Part shown: piece by piece, positions 9,913 through 58,020 of the stretch
How positions within the stretch are numbered: position 1 is the stretch's first letter
Layout: each line of letters starts with the position of its first letter
Notes under the pieces: generated by a model
Seen by the model: only the letters and a program-made list of their open reading frames with translations
Database searches by the model: none
What the model was told of the DNA's origin: nothing
Source of the DNA: a virus
Lineage: Duplodnaviria > Heunggongvirae > Uroviricota > Caudoviricetes
Length of the DNA: 64,000 nt
IMG/VR virus record: IMGVR_UViG_3300042474_001151
Coordinates: 112,431 to 176,430 of that record
Reading direction: 5' to 3' (one strand)
Position numbers and translations under genes: made by a program

Positions 9913-10161
9913 TCATGCTCTATTTTCCCCCATTCTTAACCAATGGTTTAAATAATCAAAACCATGATTACCACCGCCGTTTATACTTCTTGTTATTACA
10001 TTAATAATTTCTTCATCAATACCTCTGGCAATTTCTTCTGACATCATTCTAGTTAATTCAGCCTCAGCATGTATACCATAATGCTCATGTTCTTGTGCTG
10101 ACCACGTTGCGGTTAACGTACTTCTAATTACCCCGTGAAAAAATTTAAAATTCTTAACCAT
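9913..10161 (-). CDS. Small protein with N-terminal MVKNFKFFHG motif (FKFFxG family)
   Basis: Taking the internal Met as start gives MVKNFKFFHG. This matches the N-termini of the 44.4-47.5 kb family. Confidence 0.4.
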   Translation of the reverse strand: MVKNFKFFHGVIRSTLTATWSAQEHEHYGIHAEAELTRMMSEEIARGIDEEIINVITRSINGGGNHGFDYLNHWLRMGENRA

Positions 10162-10390
10162 TTTGTATCTCCCTTGCAAATAATTTAAACTCTTTATCAT
10201 TGTCGGTGAACAACATACTGGTATCTGAAGTTGGACTTAATCGAATTGAACATTCATTTGGTCCTGTTGCAAATACAATAGGTTCATTGTTTCCGAACTG
10301 AAAACAAAACTCAACATTCTCTGGTGTAAATGTATGTGGTTGAAAAAGAAGTGTTGGTGTTTCATCACCTTTGAAAAATTTGAAGTTCAT
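10154..10390 (-). CDS. Small protein with N-terminal MNFKFFKGD motif (FKFFxG family)
   Basis: N-terminal motif; its C-terminus ...EFKLFAR is paralogous to that of the next gene. Confidence 0.45.
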   Translation of the reverse strand: MNFKFFKGDETPTLLFQPHTFTPENVEFCFQFGNNEPIVFATGPNECSIRLSPTSDTSMLFTDNDKEFKLFAREIQNG

Positions 10391-10392
10391 TA

Positions 10393-10668
10393 CTATTTTT
10401 TTGGTCTAGCAAATAATTTAAATGTTTTACCTGATGTCGGGTCGGTAAACTTAATATAACCCTCGTTAGTATTTTGTATCCTAATAATAACCTCAGGTGA
10501 TTCTACGGTTTCATCAGCTGTTGTGAATAATTGAGGTTCATCATTATCAAATTGAATCATCCATTCACATGGCATATAAATTTCAATTTTTGGCCCATCA
10601 TCAATTGTTAATTTGTCAATAACCGATTGTAATAATTCCTCCTTTATTTTTTTTCTACCTCTTGCCAT
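10393..10668 (-). CDS. Small hypothetical protein, paralog of 10154..10390
   Basis: Shared C-terminal ...TFKLFARPKK. Confidence 0.45.
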   Translation of the reverse strand: MARGRKKIKEELLQSVIDKLTIDDGPKIEIYMPCEWMIQFDNDEPQLFTTADETVESPEVIIRIQNTNEGYIKFTDPTSGKTFKLFARPKK

Positions 10669-10669
10669 A

Positions 10670-11917
10670 TTATTTAATTTTTGTTAATTTAGGTAAAATT
10701 AGTTTTTGTTCTTTTGGTTGTATTGAGAATGGATTGATGATGTCTTTAAACTTCTCTTTCATTTTTTCCATTGAGAATTTTTCTTTATTCTCATCACCCA
10801 ACATCATAGACTTTTCTAAAAACTTATCATAGTCTTTGTAAACCAATTTAAAAACTTCAGTCACTTCGTTGTAATTTGCGGTAAACCATTTAGAATCTTT
10901 TAATATGAAAGTATCGACTGCACTTTCGTGAACCTCAGTTAATTTTCCACCAATCATAATTGCTTTATCCATCGGTAAGAAATCCTTATGTCCCGACCAG
11001 TTTGATGCAATCACAGGTTTACCCGTCATCGTAAATTCTAATAAAGGTCTACCAAACCCTTCACCTTTTGTAATCGTAACCATTGATTTAACTTTAGGAT
11101 GATTATATAAATTGTTCATCTCATCATTAGTTAAATCACCAAACAACAAATAGATTGATGGTGGATTTTCATAACCACTTACTAACCCTTCTATCTTCTT
11201 TCTAAAACTTTCTCTTTCTTTGATTGAGAATGATGCTGATGATGTTTTAAGGATAAGTGCAGGTCTATCCTCAACACCCTTAAACGATTCGGCGAAACAT
11301 CTAATCAACATACCAACATCTTTTCTATCTTGACCTGTGTCACCCTTTAACCAATGACCAACAAACAAGTAAGCAAAATCTTCTTTGATGTCAATGTCAA
11401 TGTTGTTATAAACGTTGTTGTATATTTTGGTATCAACACCTTCGAATAGTACTTCTATCTGTCTTTCGATTTTGTGTTGTTTGATTAACTTACCCGTGTT
11501 TTGTTCATTCTCATTATAAACTGTTTGTAACAAAACATCTTTTGAAAACGTGGACGTTGTAATGATTAAATCCATTCTATTACAACCATCAATCCAATCC
11601 TTAGGTGCGATAGTTGTTTCAATACCAGCAGTAATTCCGATATTAAATTTACCAACTCTTTGGAATTCATTTGGAACGGTTACTTGAACGTAAATGTCTG
11701 GTGTCTTTTCTAACTGACTAACAATATTAGACTCAATCCATTTATGAAATAAATTATCTTCCAATGCTGTCATCGGGGTTGAACCCCACATACAACTATC
11801 AATCTTAATTTCAAACAAATCCATTTCATAAAGTGCTTGTAACAAATCTCTTGAGTGTGCACCGTATCCACTTCTTGTTTTAACTGGTCCCCTAAATAAT
11901 AAAAATGGTTTGTTCAT
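10670..11917 (-). CDS. GT-B (GT1/GT4-like) glycosyltransferase
   Basis: C-terminal GEGFGRPLLEFTMTGKPVIAS resembles the EX7E motif of retaining GT4 enzymes. Confidence 0.6.
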   Translation of the reverse strand: MNKPFLLFRGPVKTRSGYGAHSRDLLQALYEMDLFEIKIDSCMWGSTPMTALEDNLFHKWIESNIVSQLEKTPDIYVQVTVPNEFQRVGKFNIGITAGIETTIAPKDWIDGCNRMDLIITTSTFSKDVLLQTVYNENEQNTGKLIKQHKIERQIEVLFEGVDTKIYNNVYNNIDIDIKEDFAYLFVGHWLKGDTGQDRKDVGMLIRCFAESFKGVEDRPALILKTSSASFSIKERESFRKKIEGLVSGYENPPSIYLLFGDLTNDEMNNLYNHPKVKSMVTITKGEGFGRPLLEFTMTGKPVIASNWSGHKDFLPMDKAIMIGGKLTEVHESAVDTFILKDSKWFTANYNEVTEVFKLVYKDYDKFLEKSMMLGDENKEKFSMEKMKEKFKDIINPFSIQPKEQKLILPKLTKIK

Positions 11918-15134: not shown

Positions 15135-15174
15135 AACTATAATTATTTGGTTTTTTTAAAATAATTTATTATAT

Positions 15175-25583: not shown

Positions 25584-25994
25584 ATGGCATACTCAGATAA
25601 GGTCTTAGACCACTACTCAAACCCTAAAAACGTGGGGACATTGGACAAATCTAAATCAAATGTCGGTACTGGATTAGTCGGTGCTCCTGAATGTGGTGAC
25701 GTAATGAGATTACAAATAGAGGTGGTTAACGATATCATTGTTGACGCTAAATTTAAAACTTTTGGATGTGGTTCAGCTATCGCATCTTCTTCAGTTGCAA
25801 CCGAATGGTTGAAAGGTAAGAGTTTAGATGAGGCGGTGACAATTGATAATATGGATTTGGTAGAGGAGTTAAATCTTCCTCCAGTTAAAATACATTGTTC
25901 AGTATTGGCGGAAGATGCTATCAAATCAGCAATAAACGATTATAGAAAAAAACAAGGATTAGAGGAAATAATCTTTGAGGAAACTCACATTTAA
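25584..25994 (+). CDS. iscU: Fe-S cluster assembly scaffold IscU/NifU-like
   Basis: GAPECGDVMRLQI, FKTFGCGSAIASSS and LPPVKIHCSVLAEDAIKSA, the three conserved Cys regions. Confidence 0.9.
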   Translation: MAYSDKVLDHYSNPKNVGTLDKSKSNVGTGLVGAPECGDVMRLQIEVVNDIIVDAKFKTFGCGSAIASSSVATEWLKGKSLDEAVTIDNMDLVEELNLPPVKIHCSVLAEDAIKSAINDYRKKQGLEEIIFEETHI

Positions 25995-26317
25995 TGGTAA
26001 CAGTATCAGAAAAAGCAGCAATTAAATTAAATTCACTTATTGAAGAAAGTGGGTTTCAAACTCCCTTTGTTAGAGTGGCTGTTAAAGGTGGTGGGTGCAG
26101 TGGATTATCATATGACCTTTCATTTGATACCGAGCAACAACCTGCCGATACTCTTGCAGAAAACAATGGAGTAAAAATTTTAATAGACAACAAATCATTA
26201 CTATATCTTTTTGGAACCGAATTAGATTTCTCTGATGGACTTAACGGTAAGGGATTTCAATTTATTAACCCAAATGCATCTCGTACTTGTGGATGTGGGG
26301 AAAGTTTCGCTCTTTAA
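25994..26317 (+). CDS. iscA: A-type Fe-S carrier (IscA/HesB/SufA)
   Basis: GGGCSG...CGCGESF motif; the start overlaps the iscU stop. Confidence 0.9.
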   Translation: MVTVSEKAAIKLNSLIEESGFQTPFVRVAVKGGGCSGLSYDLSFDTEQQPADTLAENNGVKILIDNKSLLYLFGTELDFSDGLNGKGFQFINPNASRTCGCGESFAL

Positions 26318-43454: not shown

Positions 43455-43472
43455 ATTTCAGGGTTTTTTTTT
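43445..43472 (+). terminator. Intrinsic terminator
   Basis: CCCTGAA-TAAA-TTTCAGGG followed by T9. Confidence 0.8.
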
Positions 43473-43501
43473 GGAATATACAAAATATTATTGTATATTT
43501 G
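43470..43501 (+). promoter_or_regulatory. Bacteroidetes-type promoter, class A
   Basis: TTTGGAATATAC, 20 nt, then TATATTTG, upstream of 43523. It abuts the terminator T-run. Confidence 0.6.
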
Positions 43502-44418: not shown

Positions 44419-44754
44419 ATGGTTAAATCGTTTAAATTTTTTGTTGGTAATGAAGAGGACGAAGATTATCCAATCGAAGATATGGATATCGAAACCTTAG
44501 ATGATGATAGTCCTTCTTGGTCATGGACATGTATGTTACCATTAGATGGTTACACATACGATATTGTCGAAACCCAAAGCAATGGGATACATGAATTCTT
44601 AAGTAGATTCCCAAACAGATTTTGTGTTCCTGTGTTATCGATAACCGGACCAAACGGAAGATTTCATGATACTAACACACAATATGATGATGGTTGGGGA
44701 TTTGATATCACATCCGATTTACTTACAATAAGATTTTTAAGATTTGAATCTTAG
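44419..44754 (+). CDS. FKFFxG-family small acidic protein
   Basis: N-terminal MVKSFKFFVGN. Confidence 0.5.
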   Translation: MVKSFKFFVGNEEDEDYPIEDMDIETLDDDSPSWSWTCMLPLDGYTYDIVETQSNGIHEFLSRFPNRFCVPVLSITGPNGRFHDTNTQYDDGWGFDITSDLLTIRFLRFES

Positions 44755-44778
44755 TTTCTTAAAAATAATAGTAATATT

Positions 44779-44810
44779 TTTGGATATTCAAAATATAATT
44801 CGTATATTTG
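44779..44810 (+). promoter_or_regulatory. Bacteroidetes-type promoter, class A
   Basis: TTTGGATATTC, 20 nt, then TATATTTG, 4 nt before the ATG at 44815 (leaderless). Confidence 0.55.
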
Positions 44811-44814
44811 TGGT

Positions 44815-45240
44815 ATGAATACATCAATATTGACCTTTTTATTATCAATGTCACCATTGGTTATAAAAACTGCAGAAGCTCCAAGTAGATTTAATTATCC
44901 GATAAAGATAACTAAATCAATTAGTTATGAGACAGTTACCCTTACAACCTATTCTGCAAGCGTAGGAGAAACTGACTCAACTCCTCACATAACAGCATCG
45001 GGATTTAAGATTGATACTGCTAATCCAAAAAAACACAGAATCATTGCGGTTTCAAGGGATTTAAAAAAGAAATGGCCGTTTGGTACTAAGGTTAGAATTA
45101 AAAGTGCGGGAAAATATAACGGAGTTTATACCGTTAAAGATGTAATGAACAAAAGGTATAAGAATAGAGTAGATATATTAATTGGTGAGGATGATAGACA
45201 AACCACCATGAACAACGTAAGAATTACTAAAATTAAATAA
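44815..45240 (+). CDS. Secreted 3D-domain (MltA/YuiC-like) cell-wall-binding/lytic protein
   Basis: Signal peptide, then TTYSASVGETDSTPHITASG...IIAVSRDL...GVYTVKDVM...RVDIL, the 3D-domain pattern. Confidence 0.55.
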   Translation: MNTSILTFLLSMSPLVIKTAEAPSRFNYPIKITKSISYETVTLTTYSASVGETDSTPHITASGFKIDTANPKKHRIIAVSRDLKKKWPFGTKVRIKSAGKYNGVYTVKDVMNKRYKNRVDILIGEDDRQTTMNNVRITKIK

Positions 45241-45241
45241 A

Positions 45242-45688
45242 ATGACTCCTGATTTCACAGTTAGACCATCCCAATTAATAAACATTCTTTGGGTATTTAT
45301 TGGTGGATTTGCAGTATCTGCCGCAGTATCAACAGAATTTTATTGGATTGCACTTGTTGCACTAATACCAATCTATAAGATTTTAGATTATGCATGTTGG
45401 ACCTACGATATCTATGACGACCGTATTGTAGAAAGTCGTGGTGTATTTTCTGTTACCACAAGAGAAGTGTATTTCCATAGAATTAAATCTGTAATGATGG
45501 AAAGACCTTTTTGGATGAGAATTCTTGGTGTTGGTAGTGTTATGGTTAGAAGTTCTGACCAATTCACCAGTTACTTTGTAATCTATGGTATCGATGACGT
45601 TGAGGAATTTGAAGAAGATTTTCAAGATGTTATTCAAGATAAAAGAAAGGAAAATGGAATGAAAGAACATGAAATATTTCAAATGTAA
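45242..45688 (+). CDS. Membrane protein with bacterial PH (bPH_2)-like domain
   Basis: Two TM helices, then a SRGVFSVTTREVYFHRIKSV block. Confidence 0.45.
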   Translation: MTPDFTVRPSQLINILWVFIGGFAVSAAVSTEFYWIALVALIPIYKILDYACWTYDIYDDRIVESRGVFSVTTREVYFHRIKSVMMERPFWMRILGVGSVMVRSSDQFTSYFVIYGIDDVEEFEEDFQDVIQDKRKENGMKEHEIFQM

Positions 45689-45950
45689 AATATAAAACAA
45701 TTAATATGACATCAAAATTTTTTGGTTCACCAAAACCAAACCAAGTGAAGAAAGGAGATAAAAAAACTCCAACCACACAACCTAAACCAGTGAAGACCAC
45801 TCAGATTAAAAAAAATAATAGAGGTAAATAATATGAACAAGTTAATAATTAAATTTAAAAAAATCCTACAAGAAATCTTGTTGGGGTTTAAAATTGCTGA
45901 AGAGAATAAACATAAATCCCAATGGGGTAAGTTTTAAATTAAAAAAATGT

Positions 45951-46313
45951 ATGAGAGAATTCAAATTTTTCAGAGGGTACGTTGATAACCAATCGATAGG
46001 AATTAATTGGGATGAAATCAATAGAATAAATGAAATAAATAGATTACCAACTTGGAGTGGTACTAACTACCAACCAACATGGATTACTAATCCGGGTTAT
46101 ATTGTTCCACAACCATATACTATAACAACAACACCGGGTACTGGCACATATACGATTCCATTCAGTGGAACAATTAGTGGTTCATCAACGGGTTTTAGTT
46201 TAACAACATCAAATCCAAACGGAATAACTTATACTACGGGTGGTATGGGTGGAACTTTTACAACGACAGGTACAGTATCTACAAATACATTTTATACTTC
46301 AAATATTAAGTAA
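45951..46313 (+). CDS. FKFFxG-family protein with Gly/Thr-rich low-complexity tail
   Basis: Start moved to the in-frame Met, giving MREFKFFRGYV. Confidence 0.45.
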   Translation: MREFKFFRGYVDNQSIGINWDEINRINEINRLPTWSGTNYQPTWITNPGYIVPQPYTITTTPGTGTYTIPFSGTISGSSTGFSLTTSNPNGITYTTGGMGGTFTTTGTVSTNTFYTSNIK

Positions 46314-46750
46314 TGACTAAGTTCGTTTTTTTCAGGGGTTATGTTGGAACATTAAATGTAATGGATGGAGAAACTTATGCCACCGCATCACTCAATGACG
46401 ATACTCCCGAAGGTCATATGAATAGAAGAATGTTATATCACACAAATCATAATCTTCTTGATAATGTTAGAAGGGAAATACCAAGAGGTCGGTTTGGCAC
46501 GCCCGAGAGACACCAAGATATCCTAAGAAGACTACAAATGACTAACGATTTAAGAGATCTAAATGATAACCCTATAAGATTATTCCAAACAACATCAGTA
46601 ACAACAGTTAACCCGAAGTGGTGGATGAAGATAAAGATGTTTTTTCAAGAGGCTAATTTTAATGGTGAAATCTTAGGTATTATTTTTATTGCTGGTTCAT
46701 TAACTATTGGTGTAATTCTCGGAATTGCTAAATTATTAAATGCATGGTAA
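46313..46750 (+). CDS. FKFFxG-family protein with C-terminal TM anchor
   Basis: MTKFVFFRGYVG; C-terminal ILGIIFIAGSLTIGVILGIA. Confidence 0.45.
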   Translation: MTKFVFFRGYVGTLNVMDGETYATASLNDDTPEGHMNRRMLYHTNHNLLDNVRREIPRGRFGTPERHQDILRRLQMTNDLRDLNDNPIRLFQTTSVTTVNPKWWMKIKMFFQEANFNGEILGIIFIAGSLTIGVILGIAKLLNAW

Positions 46751-46968
46751 GCGAGTTTAAGTTCTTTCAAAAGAACAAATATAAAGATAGATGTCGATTA
46801 CAGATTGGTTCCTCATTTATTTTACGTGGATATTATTGTACCGTAACAAGAATGTTTGCAAACCATTTTGAATATTGGGTACAAGAAACGGAATTTACCA
46901 TTGCTATGAGTTATAAAGATTATCTAGCCACACCATCGGCTGCAGGTAGACAATTAAATAGTATATGA
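46744..46968 (+). CDS. FKFFxG-family small protein
   Basis: MVSEFKFFQK. Confidence 0.4.
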   Translation: MVSEFKFFQKNKYKDRCRLQIGSSFILRGYYCTVTRMFANHFEYWVQETEFTIAMSYKDYLATPSAAGRQLNSI

Positions 46969-47459
46969 TAAAACCTTTTAAACTACTTAAAGGATACACA
47001 TACAGTGATGAGTATACATTACCAACACAACAAAATCCACCATTCAATTTATCACATCGTCATTGGAATTTGTTACCTCAAGATTTGAGAGGTGCGACAT
47101 TACAAGAAATGGAATGTTATATTCGTGGATGGGAAGATGCTCGTAGTAATGTTACGGTAAATCCATATATTGATAGAATAAGACGTAGTTTGTGGAATAG
47201 GGGGTTTCTAAGGTGGAGGGGTAGAGTAGGAATGAATTATCGTAATGTAAATCCTAACCTACCAATAGACGAAAGTTACCCTGAATATTATAACACAGAT
47301 GATTTTGTTTTCTCTGATGTGTCCTCAATTATGTTTGACCCAATTAGTTCTCAACCATACAAACATATGATGTTTAGACATATTGAGGATGGAGATACGG
47401 TAGAAGGTAATAGAATATTTCCCGACCACCCAATGTGGAACTTCCTTGATATAATATAA
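46965..47459 (+). CDS. FKFFxG-family (variant FKLLKGY) protein
   Basis: MIKPFKLLKGYTY. Confidence 0.45.
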   Translation: MIKPFKLLKGYTYSDEYTLPTQQNPPFNLSHRHWNLLPQDLRGATLQEMECYIRGWEDARSNVTVNPYIDRIRRSLWNRGFLRWRGRVGMNYRNVNPNLPIDESYPEYYNTDDFVFSDVSSIMFDPISSQPYKHMMFRHIEDGDTVEGNRIFPDHPMWNFLDII

Positions 47460-51775: not shown

Positions 51776-53143
51776 ATGTCCATTAAAACAAGGAAGATTA
51801 AATTGATTGCGGTTGGTGAAACTGCAAAGGATAGAACAAAGGTCTACAACTACATTAAGAAGGTTGCAGATGATTTGACCCAAGTGGGAAATGAGGTTAT
51901 AAGACTTCATGTGTGCAATCAATATGAAATTGACAGGTTAAAGGGTACAAATAATATTTCCAAGGGTGATGCAATTAAGATACTACAAGATTCACTTGGT
52001 ACATCCATAAGGAATTCGGGGTATCAACTACTAACAAAATTCCCATATATATCTTCTCAAGTAAGGACATGTTTCAATTCTGTTATATATAAGACCATAA
52101 GTGATAACTTCTATGATATCCTTAAAGGGAAAGTATCCATTCCATCATTTAGAAAATCTAATCTATCCATTCCATTTTCAGCCAATAATGATAAAGAAAC
52201 TGGTATAACGAACGCAATATACGCCGAGGGAGATAGATACTACATACAATTCCCATTATCGGGGGAAGAAAGAAAGATACATAAAAAAGTTGAATTATCC
52301 TTATTCTTCGGAAAAGATAGAAGTAATAATAGAATTATTGTAGATAGAATACTCAATAGTGAATATAAACTATGTGATAGTAACTTCAAAATAGAAGATA
52401 ATGATTTATATCTATTGATTACCTATAAACAACCAGATAGTATTAAACCCGAAATGGATGTTAATAAGGTAATGGGTATAGACTTAGGTATTAATAGACC
52501 CGTATCCATTTATATTTCCAATGAAAAACATCAACCACGACAGATTAATATAGGATTAAAGATACAACATGAAAGGATGAAATTCTATAAACATAGAAAA
52601 TCCCTACAGGAATCTTTAAAGTATTCTAAAGGTGGTCACGGTAGAAATAGAAAGTTGAAGTCTTTGGAAGATTTAAGAGATAAGGAAAAGAATTGGAGTC
52701 AATTAATAAATCATACTATCTCTCGAGAAGTTATCAGGATTGCTAACGAGTATAATGTTGGTGTTATCCATATGGAAGATTTAACAGGAATAACAACTAA
52801 CTCTAAGGATTACTTCATGAAGAGTTGGGCATACTACCAACTACAAACTTATATAGTATATAAAGCAAAAGAACTTGGGATAACCATATTATGGGTAGAC
52901 CCTAAGAATACTTCTAATACCTGTCCCACTTGTAAGGTTTCTGAACCATTGAATAGAAACGATAAAGATAAAACAAAATTCAGATGTATTAATTTGAATT
53001 GTAAGGACTTTGATATGGATAGAGATGCTGATATTGTAGGAGCATTTAATATAACACATACCTTAGGATTAGATGTAAAGTCTAATAGTAAAGAAGGTAG
53101 AATGAAAAAAGGTAAGGAGAAAAAATTTATGGAACAAGTATAA
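51776..53143 (+). CDS. tnpB: TnpB-like RNA-guided RuvC nuclease (IS200/IS605 OrfB/Cas12-like). No tnpA is nearby.
   Basis: RuvC-I MGIDLGINRP, RuvC-II VIHMEDLTGI, RuvC-III DMDRDADIVGAFNI, and zinc finger CPTC...FRCINLNC. Confidence 0.85.
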   Translation: MSIKTRKIKLIAVGETAKDRTKVYNYIKKVADDLTQVGNEVIRLHVCNQYEIDRLKGTNNISKGDAIKILQDSLGTSIRNSGYQLLTKFPYISSQVRTCFNSVIYKTISDNFYDILKGKVSIPSFRKSNLSIPFSANNDKETGITNAIYAEGDRYYIQFPLSGEERKIHKKVELSLFFGKDRSNNRIIVDRILNSEYKLCDSNFKIEDNDLYLLITYKQPDSIKPEMDVNKVMGIDLGINRPVSIYISNEKHQPRQINIGLKIQHERMKFYKHRKSLQESLKYSKGGHGRNRKLKSLEDLRDKEKNWSQLINHTISREVIRIANEYNVGVIHMEDLTGITTNSKDYFMKSWAYYQLQTYIVYKAKELGITILWVDPKNTSNTCPTCKVSEPLNRNDKDKTKFRCINLNCKDFDMDRDADIVGAFNITHTLGLDVKSNSKEGRMKKGKEKKFMEQV

Positions 53144-57970: not shown

Positions 57971-58020
57971 AGATATAACAGGGATATCATTATTCCAAAT
58001 AATATCCCCGTTATTTTATT

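Follow-up and report, generated by a model that had tools for sequence, protein, structure and literature searches.

A short F-K-F-F peptide at the termini of unrelated small proteins in uncultured AT-rich giant phages

The closest known analogue of the element described here is the capsid-targeting sequence (CTS) of phage T4. The T4 internal proteins are a diverse, hypervariable set of small proteins that share only about 10 N-terminal residues (PMC3012670). We analyzed a 64,000-nucleotide stretch of a tailed-phage genome (Caudoviricetes; IMG/VR record IMGVR_UViG_3300042474_001151, positions 112,431 to 176,430; hereafter the window), in which five small open reading frames (ORFs) between positions 44,419 and 47,459 begin with a common motif built on F-K-F-F, and we followed this FKFF tag into related viral contigs. 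In T4 the common sequence is MKTYQEFIAE, and it is carried by IPI, IPII and IPIII of the hyperplastic ip locus. The two systems are alike in that about 10 N-terminal residues are common to diverse, fast-evolving small proteins, and both have variable loci and gp23-type capsids. The peptides themselves have no sequence similarity (MKTYQEFIAE versus MKPFKFFKGY) and coincide in no more than the initial M-K and one aromatic residue. The FKFF tag, known here from genes alone, also differs in having no terminal protease site, in lying behind promoters that look host-type rather than late, in being used at a C-terminus and in having membrane-anchored members.

Three further systems offer partial likenesses. 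Hyperplastic regions of T4-type phages also hold arrays of small orphan genes that differ between near-identical genomes, with repeats at the cassette boundaries; in work by Arbiol et al. from 2010 they reportedly shuffle via repeated junction sequences (PeSL cassettes) made of a non-coding promoter and stem-loop. The repeat there is non-coding, whereas the FKFF repeat is coding and selected as a peptide. Terminal docking motifs (sliding-clamp tails, PIP boxes, ssrA-like degrons) are short and unstructured, occur at either terminus of unrelated carriers and lead to one hub. FKFF carriers, in contrast, are small and without an enzyme match in Pfam, and the tag fits neither the clamp motif QL[SD]LF nor the PIP box Q-x-x-[LIM]-x-x-[FY]-[FY], as it lacks the Gln and has P, E, K, N or D at position 4 of the PIP box. 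The leaders of ribosomally synthesized and post-translationally modified peptides and the trafficking domains of polymorphic toxins likewise combine a conserved address module with hypervariable cargo in arrayed genes. Those modules span 20-150 residues and their cargo consists of short peptides or toxin domains; the annotation of the window and related loci shows the FKFF arrays without any modifying enzyme, secretion system or immunity gene.

A terminal tag selected as a peptide

The five tagged proteins of the array, all on the plus strand, start at 44419 (MVKSFKFFVG), 45951 (MREFKFFRGY), 46313 (MTKFVFFRGY), 46744 (MVSEFKFFQK) and 46965 (MIKPFKLLKGY) and follow the pattern M-x(1-3)-F-K/V-F/L-F/L, just as a preliminary description of this DNA had reported. 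The concern that the correct starts might lie elsewhere was not borne out: independent gene callers on other assemblies agreed on these starts, the internal ATG at 45951 among them. The motif itself is real, and when all start codons of the whole window were scanned in six frames, the earlier list proved to be short by two minus-strand members, with starts at 10390 and 10161. F[KV][FL][FL] is found at residues 3-6 in 7 of the 112 window genes, where 0.06 occurrences are expected from the amino-acid composition of the window (Poisson P about 5e-13).

Among 2,657 distinct ORFs of related contigs (521,612 residues), there are 113 cases of FK[FL][FL] at residues 3-7, 22 in the last 10 residues and 81 anywhere else, and the tag is borne solely by small proteins of up to ~185 amino acids. 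A strict census gives the consensus M-[IV]?-[KR]-[PEKND]-F-K-F-[FL]-[KQRS]-[GK]-[NYF], with a spacer of 1-3 residues before the first Phe; the four core positions (strict [KV] census) are Phe in 99/99, Lys in 97/99, Phe in 93/99 and Phe/Leu in 99/99. The portable part is about 9 residues long ([KR]-[PEDNKST]-F-K-F-[FL]-x-[GK]). Occasional members have FRFF, FIFF or FNFF at the core or a spacer of four residues, and Arg forms are few in broader scans. Tagged proteins are always small (42-165 amino acids, median ~87). Neither Pfam nor PHROGs holds a match to the tag, and full-text literature searches for the peptide returned nothing relevant and no description of it, in agreement with the earlier remark that it has no named equivalent.

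The tag is a lineage trait of uncultured, AT-rich giant phages with T4-type capsid genes, in which dozens of unrelated small proteins carry it. Tagged loci have a GC content of 29-35% and come from viral contigs of up to 335 kilobases (kb). Six viral contigs encode relatives of the 164-amino-acid tagged protein of the window (61-98% identity), and orthologous genes keep the tag in all of them. Further loci came from a search with the 82-amino-acid tagged family and from a degenerate DNA-pattern scan, in which the matches listed were mostly single chance matches and the clustered loci alone are informative; loci are referred to below by L numbers where they must be told apart. Identical copies of window proteins were found in metagenome contigs only. 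DNA and protein searches of cultured phage genomes with the array, the 164-amino-acid protein, the ~10-kb gene pair and a 444-amino-acid neighbor as queries gave no match.

Synonymous codons in the tag are used at background rates, and selection therefore acts on the peptide, not on the DNA. The tag Phe codons are 70-72% TTT, compared with 68% genome-wide, TTC makes up ~30% at each Phe, and Leu substitutions are often on CTN codons; the earlier observation that codons differ between copies thus holds. The choice of amino acids is strict. Phe reaches at least 94% at three tag positions, even though Leu, Ile and Val each outnumber it genome-wide and Tyr is about equal, and Lys is strongly favored over Arg although the genome-wide Lys:Arg ratio is 2.1:1.

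The tag also occurs at a C-terminus. An N-terminally membrane-anchored family of ~150 amino acids, which adjoins tagged genes in L074, L109 and L113, ends F-K-F-[FL]-R-G-stop in 119 of 120 database homologues, and the 20-30-residue linker before this tag varies freely. Since this C-terminal copy is itself selected, start-codon, translation-initiation or N-terminal-processing signals cannot explain the tag. A signal of the start region at the RNA or DNA level (translational operator, enhancer or recombination site) was rejected on the same C-terminal copy and on the background codon usage. The tag is selected as a peptide at either terminus, independent of the body attached to it, which upholds the core of the preliminary description: a short terminal tag selected at the protein level on unrelated proteins.

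Modeling suggests that the tag is flexible and stands apart from the fold of its carrier. The family of the tagged gene with its start at 10390 (gene 6) comprises 273 database clusters (76-86 amino acids among the 120 listed), with F3, K4, F5 and F6 invariant in a 43-sequence alignment. In the AlphaFold model of gene 6, a three-strand body has a predicted local distance difference test (pLDDT) score of 74-88; residues 1-8 score below 50, have no secondary structure and lie outside the body, and a C-terminal FKLFARE forms a core strand. A Foldseek search of this 78-amino-acid model against the PDB gave no match below E=1. In the first protein of the array, ~25 acidic residues part the tag from the body. 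Membrane topologies deduced with the positive-inside rule are consistent between two families: in the tail-anchored one the tag and the transmembrane helix lie at opposite ends, and in the C-tagged one the tag follows an N-terminal transmembrane helix whose Lys-rich side faces the tag. From its side in both topologies, the tag is predicted to be cytoplasmic and would act in the cytoplasm. A Sec or lipoprotein signal peptide is excluded because polar or acidic residues (x-G-[NYF]-[EVK]...) follow the tag and there is no hydrophobic core behind it; the secretion signal entertained in the preliminary description is thereby eliminated in its Sec-type form.

Variable arrays and putative host-type promoters

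The bodies behind the tag are unrelated, as first described: with the tag removed, blastp splits the sequences from four loci into 15 or more separate clusters. Across 95 scanned members there is no common Pfam or PHROG family, and no member matches an enzyme family in Pfam. The arrays are hypervariable. Up to 16 tagged genes lie within 10 kb in L109, the largest array, and 12 within 7 kb in L011, and contigs with differing sets of array genes nevertheless have flanking genes that are 97-100% identical. Three loci encode a deletion chimera, a single protein bearing two tags, and modules are fused or split, as in the 164-amino-acid window protein, which corresponds to two genes of L011.

Junctions between tagged genes predominantly overlap by 1, 4, 8 or 14 nucleotides. 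Thirteen of ~90 overlap by exactly 14 nucleotides, which places the TAA stop of the upstream gene within the TTTAAA coding for Phe-Lys of the next tag; the 14-nucleotide junctions of L011, L074, L094, L109 and L113 give upstream C-termini such as ...YETI*. At one junction (L109:3600-3660), two tag-coding copies stand 24 nucleotides apart. Directly after the first tagged gene, L007 (6513-7658, minus strand) and L009 (5467-6612, minus strand) carry an opposite-strand gene for a 381-amino-acid protein that is absent from the window and may be a mobile element.

TTTG-N18-21-TAnnTTTG is the sigma-A consensus of Bacteroidota (PMC9723704). It has 15 matches in the window where 3.0 are expected, and none of 100 shuffled sequences reaches 15. 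All 15 are co-oriented with genes, and two lie directly ahead of the array: one at 43470..43501 (plus strand, TTTG-N20-TATATTTG), ahead of an operon ending in the first tagged gene, and one at 44779..44810 (plus strand), ahead of the 44815-47459 operon with tagged genes 2-5 and conserved in L007 and L009. Among the matches (TTTGGAATAT...TAnnTTTG) are those at 15146, 34335, 38099, 40543, 43470, 44779 and 50899 on the plus strand and at 57999, 60650 and 63283 on the minus strand. Such promoters are also present in the related loci L007, L009, L011 and L113. The T4-type late-promoter motif TATAAATA is not enriched, in a search for a T4-type consensus that may not be the one of this lineage.

The fifteen putative promoters point to the host phylum and appear to delimit transcription units. 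Gene starts have A-rich leaders and no Shine-Dalgarno sequence, as described for Bacteroidota (PMC6847099), and one homologue was deposited under a Bacteroidota metagenome-assembled genome. Judged from these features, the host is probably a member of the Bacteroidota. The arrays are probably transcribed early, by the host polymerase, because host-type sigma-A promoter matches precede them.

Tagged genes and their neighbors in the window

Gene 1 of the array (44419..44754, plus strand, 111 amino acids) has an acidic linker behind its tag and then a folded-looking body; its orthologues in L006, L007, L009, L094 and L109 keep the tag at a body identity of 35-97%. Gene 2 (45951..46313, plus strand, 120 amino acids) has a repetitive Gly/Thr-rich body. 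Two tail-fiber families of PHROGs each have a match to one tagged protein, and although the output does not name these proteins, we infer that the matches belong to the gene 2 family. Gene 3 (46313..46750, plus strand, 145 amino acids) is tail-anchored by a C-terminal transmembrane helix, and its orthologues in L007, L009, L011, L094, L109 and L113 (32-67% identity) have all kept the tag. Gene 4 (46744..46968, plus strand) encodes a basic protein of 74 amino acids with orthologues in L007, L009, L042, L094, L109 and L113.

Gene 5 (46965..47459, plus strand, 164 amino acids) consists of two fused modules that are separate tagged genes in L011, with L011_2035 resembling residues 20-85 and L011_2330 residues 90-149. 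A domain of the form G-W-x-x-[AC]-...-N-P-[YF]-...-W-x-x-G-[YWF] is common to several tagged bodies (window 46965-47200, plus strand; L009:9702-10004; L074:2474-2761; L109:8116-8760). The top PDB profile matches of this N-terminal module (46965-47200) are three chains of ribosome modulation factor, with E values of only 0.055-0.34; this weak likeness hints at a ribosome-binding fold.

The array includes a 41-amino-acid basic ORF (45706..45831, plus strand, MTSKFF...) that had been listed as a weaker member. It is doubtful, as the first Phe (99/99 in members) is absent and its lone, divergent orthologue (L109) reads MSSKFF. Two untagged genes at 44815..45688 (plus strand) encode a secreted phrog_21574 (peptidoglycan-hydrolase-like) protein and a membrane-flanked protein with a bacterial PH domain (bPH_2). 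Three kinds of look-alike were rejected as members: a glycosyltransferase at 11917 (MNKPFLLFRG), a chance resemblance whose orthologues vary freely at its Phe (F/T/V/S/K/I), a DUF401 protein at 289, and a few long ORFs that fit a relaxed pattern.

On the minus strand, gene 6 (10154..10390, 78 amino acids, MNFKFFKGDE...FKLFAREIQNG) is a core gene of the lineage. It adjoins an untagged paralogue (10393..10668, minus strand, 91 amino acids) with a basic N-terminus (MARGRKKIKEELL) in place of the tag; the two share a small beta domain with a C-terminal ...FKLFAR strand (...KTFKLFARPKK in the paralogue). Gene 7 (9913..10161, minus strand, 82 amino acids) joins the tag MVKNFKFFHG to a fragment with homology to two elements of the T4 gp23-type major capsid protein (MCP), the P-domain strand and the spine helix, and we call it the mini-MCP. 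It matches Pfam Gp23 at E=6.9e-5, as do 11 tagged proteins of the 95-member census at E values down to 5.5e-16, and all 61 homologues in the database have 80-107 amino acids. A complete HK97-fold capsid protein (~400-600 amino acids) was rejected, since gene 7 retains just these two elements and its homologues are equally short; a full-length relative, for comparison, has 585 amino acids. A 13-codon upstream extension was also rejected; read directly from the sequence, it is another reading frame of the C-terminus of the upstream gene. A variant at L190:5309-5683 also contains a conserved N-terminal capsid segment (FPMVRRVF...VQPLNGPTG), in permuted order, which we take to be the counterpart of the Gol region in T4, which the Lit protease senses. 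The mini-MCP proteins could act as decoys, modulate assembly or be used as weapons against rival phages.

The window has 32% GC, a strand-consistent GC skew and small, tightly packed, often overlapping genes. Pfam and PHROG scans of 84 window ORFs found phage accessory functions only (thymidylate synthase, DNA methylases, primase, NifU/IscA, nucleotide-sugar enzymes, glycosyltransferases and TnpB) and no complete structural gene. The NifU-like and IscA-like iron-sulfur cluster assembly genes are adjacent (25584-26317, plus strand), an unusual auxiliary metabolic pair for a phage. Just downstream of the array region lies a TnpB/Cas12f-like protein with OrfB_IS605 and TNB domains (51776-53143, plus strand), in a place occupied by other genes in relatives.

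Possible roles of the tag

We favor, with a probability of roughly 55%, a reading in which the tag is a portable, unstructured, cytoplasmic docking peptide that is read by one partner and carried by hypervariable, probably early, small accessory proteins. It builds on the over-representation and peptide-level selection of the tag, its independence of body and terminus, its cytoplasmic side, the promoters and the variability of the arrays. The tag would hang off either protein end as a flexible peptide in the cytoplasm, and its conservation would come from one common binding partner, of phage or host. Binding would confer one shared property on unrelated proteins, for example by recruiting them to a site or complex or by committing them to a common fate. 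Transcription would be early, by the host RNA polymerase from sigma-A promoters, and recombination at or close to the gene junctions that encode the tag would make the arrays expand, contract and reshuffle. Among the outcomes that docking could have, recruitment to a shared hub or membrane site is possible but, taken by itself, rather unlikely; a common turnover signal for an AAA+ protease of the host is unlikely, and capsid packaging improbable.

Several points weigh against the docking reading. The early timing is drawn from promoter consensus matches only, and no sigma-A-type promoter lies near the 10390/10161 pair. The disorder of the tag is taken from a single, moderately confident AlphaFold model (mean pLDDT 71), a second model, of the mini-MCP, being poor (pLDDT 52) and unusable. 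Tag-coding DNA is duplicated at some junctions and a stop lies inside TTTAAA in 13 of ~90, such that DNA-level cassette mechanics may contribute to conservation. The candidate partners within the array, the bPH_2 and secreted proteins, are found in close relatives only, and were rejected as universal partners on that ground.

Capsid targeting is the alternative suggested by the T4 comparison, and the likeness to a CTS or propeptide had already been raised in the preliminary description. The tag would bind the prohead scaffold, and its carriers, like the internal proteins of T4, would be packaged into the capsid and injected together with the DNA. T4 shows the same overall pattern (PMC3012670), the lineage has T4 gp23-type capsid genes, and one tagged family is itself a capsid-protein fragment. 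The CTS remains the closest known analogue, yet the proposal did not withstand the available tests. Only 8 of 136 members (6%, versus 13% by chance) have a T4-type [LI]-x-E protease site in the 12 residues behind the tag, at no fixed position; the arrays lie behind matches to host sigma-A-type promoters without enrichment of T4-type late ones; some tagged proteins are membrane-anchored; and the tag is selected at a C-terminus, which is not known for the CTS. Also, tagged genes are all but absent from ~800 kb of head-gene neighborhoods of AT-rich T4-like phages, a weak point in that none of these loci, which were reached via a full-length capsid protein search returning only other AT-rich T4-like phages, is proven to be of the tagged lineage. 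None of these results is decisive, and together they leave capsid targeting disfavored and improbable. If the tag were instead a shared terminal degron for a host AAA+ protease (Lon, ClpXP or FtsH), it would give early proteins a short lifetime or flood the protease. Degrons are unstructured, cytoplasmic and active at either terminus, which fits the AlphaFold model, the C-terminal copy and the membrane topologies, and Lon and ClpX recognize aromatic or hydrophobic-basic terminal peptides; the promoters, too, suggest early proteins. The strict conservation of F-K-F-F exceeds that of most known degrons, however, and core genes conserved throughout the lineage are tagged as well; we consider a degron an unlikely explanation.

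Two other explanations have less in their favor. The Phe/Lys-rich, terminal composition of the tag, followed by Gly, resembles the N-terminus of MreB (MLKKFRGMF) and the C-terminus of MinD (KKGFLKRLFGG), and might form an amphipathic membrane anchor; alternatively, tags might pair with each other as beta-strands, with the C-tagged membrane protein, whose cytoplasmic end is tagged next to tagged genes in L074, L109 and L113, gathering the N-tagged ones. Unlike the tag, membrane-targeting sequences accept Leu, Ile, Trp and Arg, and proteins that already have a transmembrane helix are tagged too; we consider this explanation quite improbable. The most doubtful proposal makes the peptide incidental, a by-product of cassette shuffling in which junction DNA is conserved as recombination microhomology or as a translational-coupling signal. 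The dominant 1/4/8/14-nucleotide overlaps, the 13 TAA stops inside TTTAAA, the tandem copies 24 nucleotides apart and the deletion chimeras all speak for it. Against it stand the background synonymous codon rates, Phe-to-Leu changes via unrelated codons, the C-terminal tag in 119/120 homologues and the invariant tag of core single-copy families.

Returning to the docking peptide, an invariant tag on dozens of unrelated proteins points to a single, undescribed molecular reader. A bolder version, which we put forward tentatively and at less than even odds, is that FKFF is a universal addressing system of widespread Bacteroidota jumbo phages, in which one tag at either end hands diversifying host-takeover or anti-defense proteins to one dedicated receptor. 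If so, the receptor would be a recruitment platform, a packaging route or a route of timed destruction, the tag would be transferable to foreign cargo, and the system would have no counterpart among characterized phage systems. The Bacteroidota are a phylum whose phage biology is poorly known. The tag is a simple, searchable metagenome marker for this lineage and its variable arrays, and could serve as a minimal handle to direct foreign proteins in such hosts or phages, as the T4 CTS did. The reader, once found, would give hundreds of orphan phage genes a shared pathway and would show how jumbo phages run a fast-evolving accessory arsenal.

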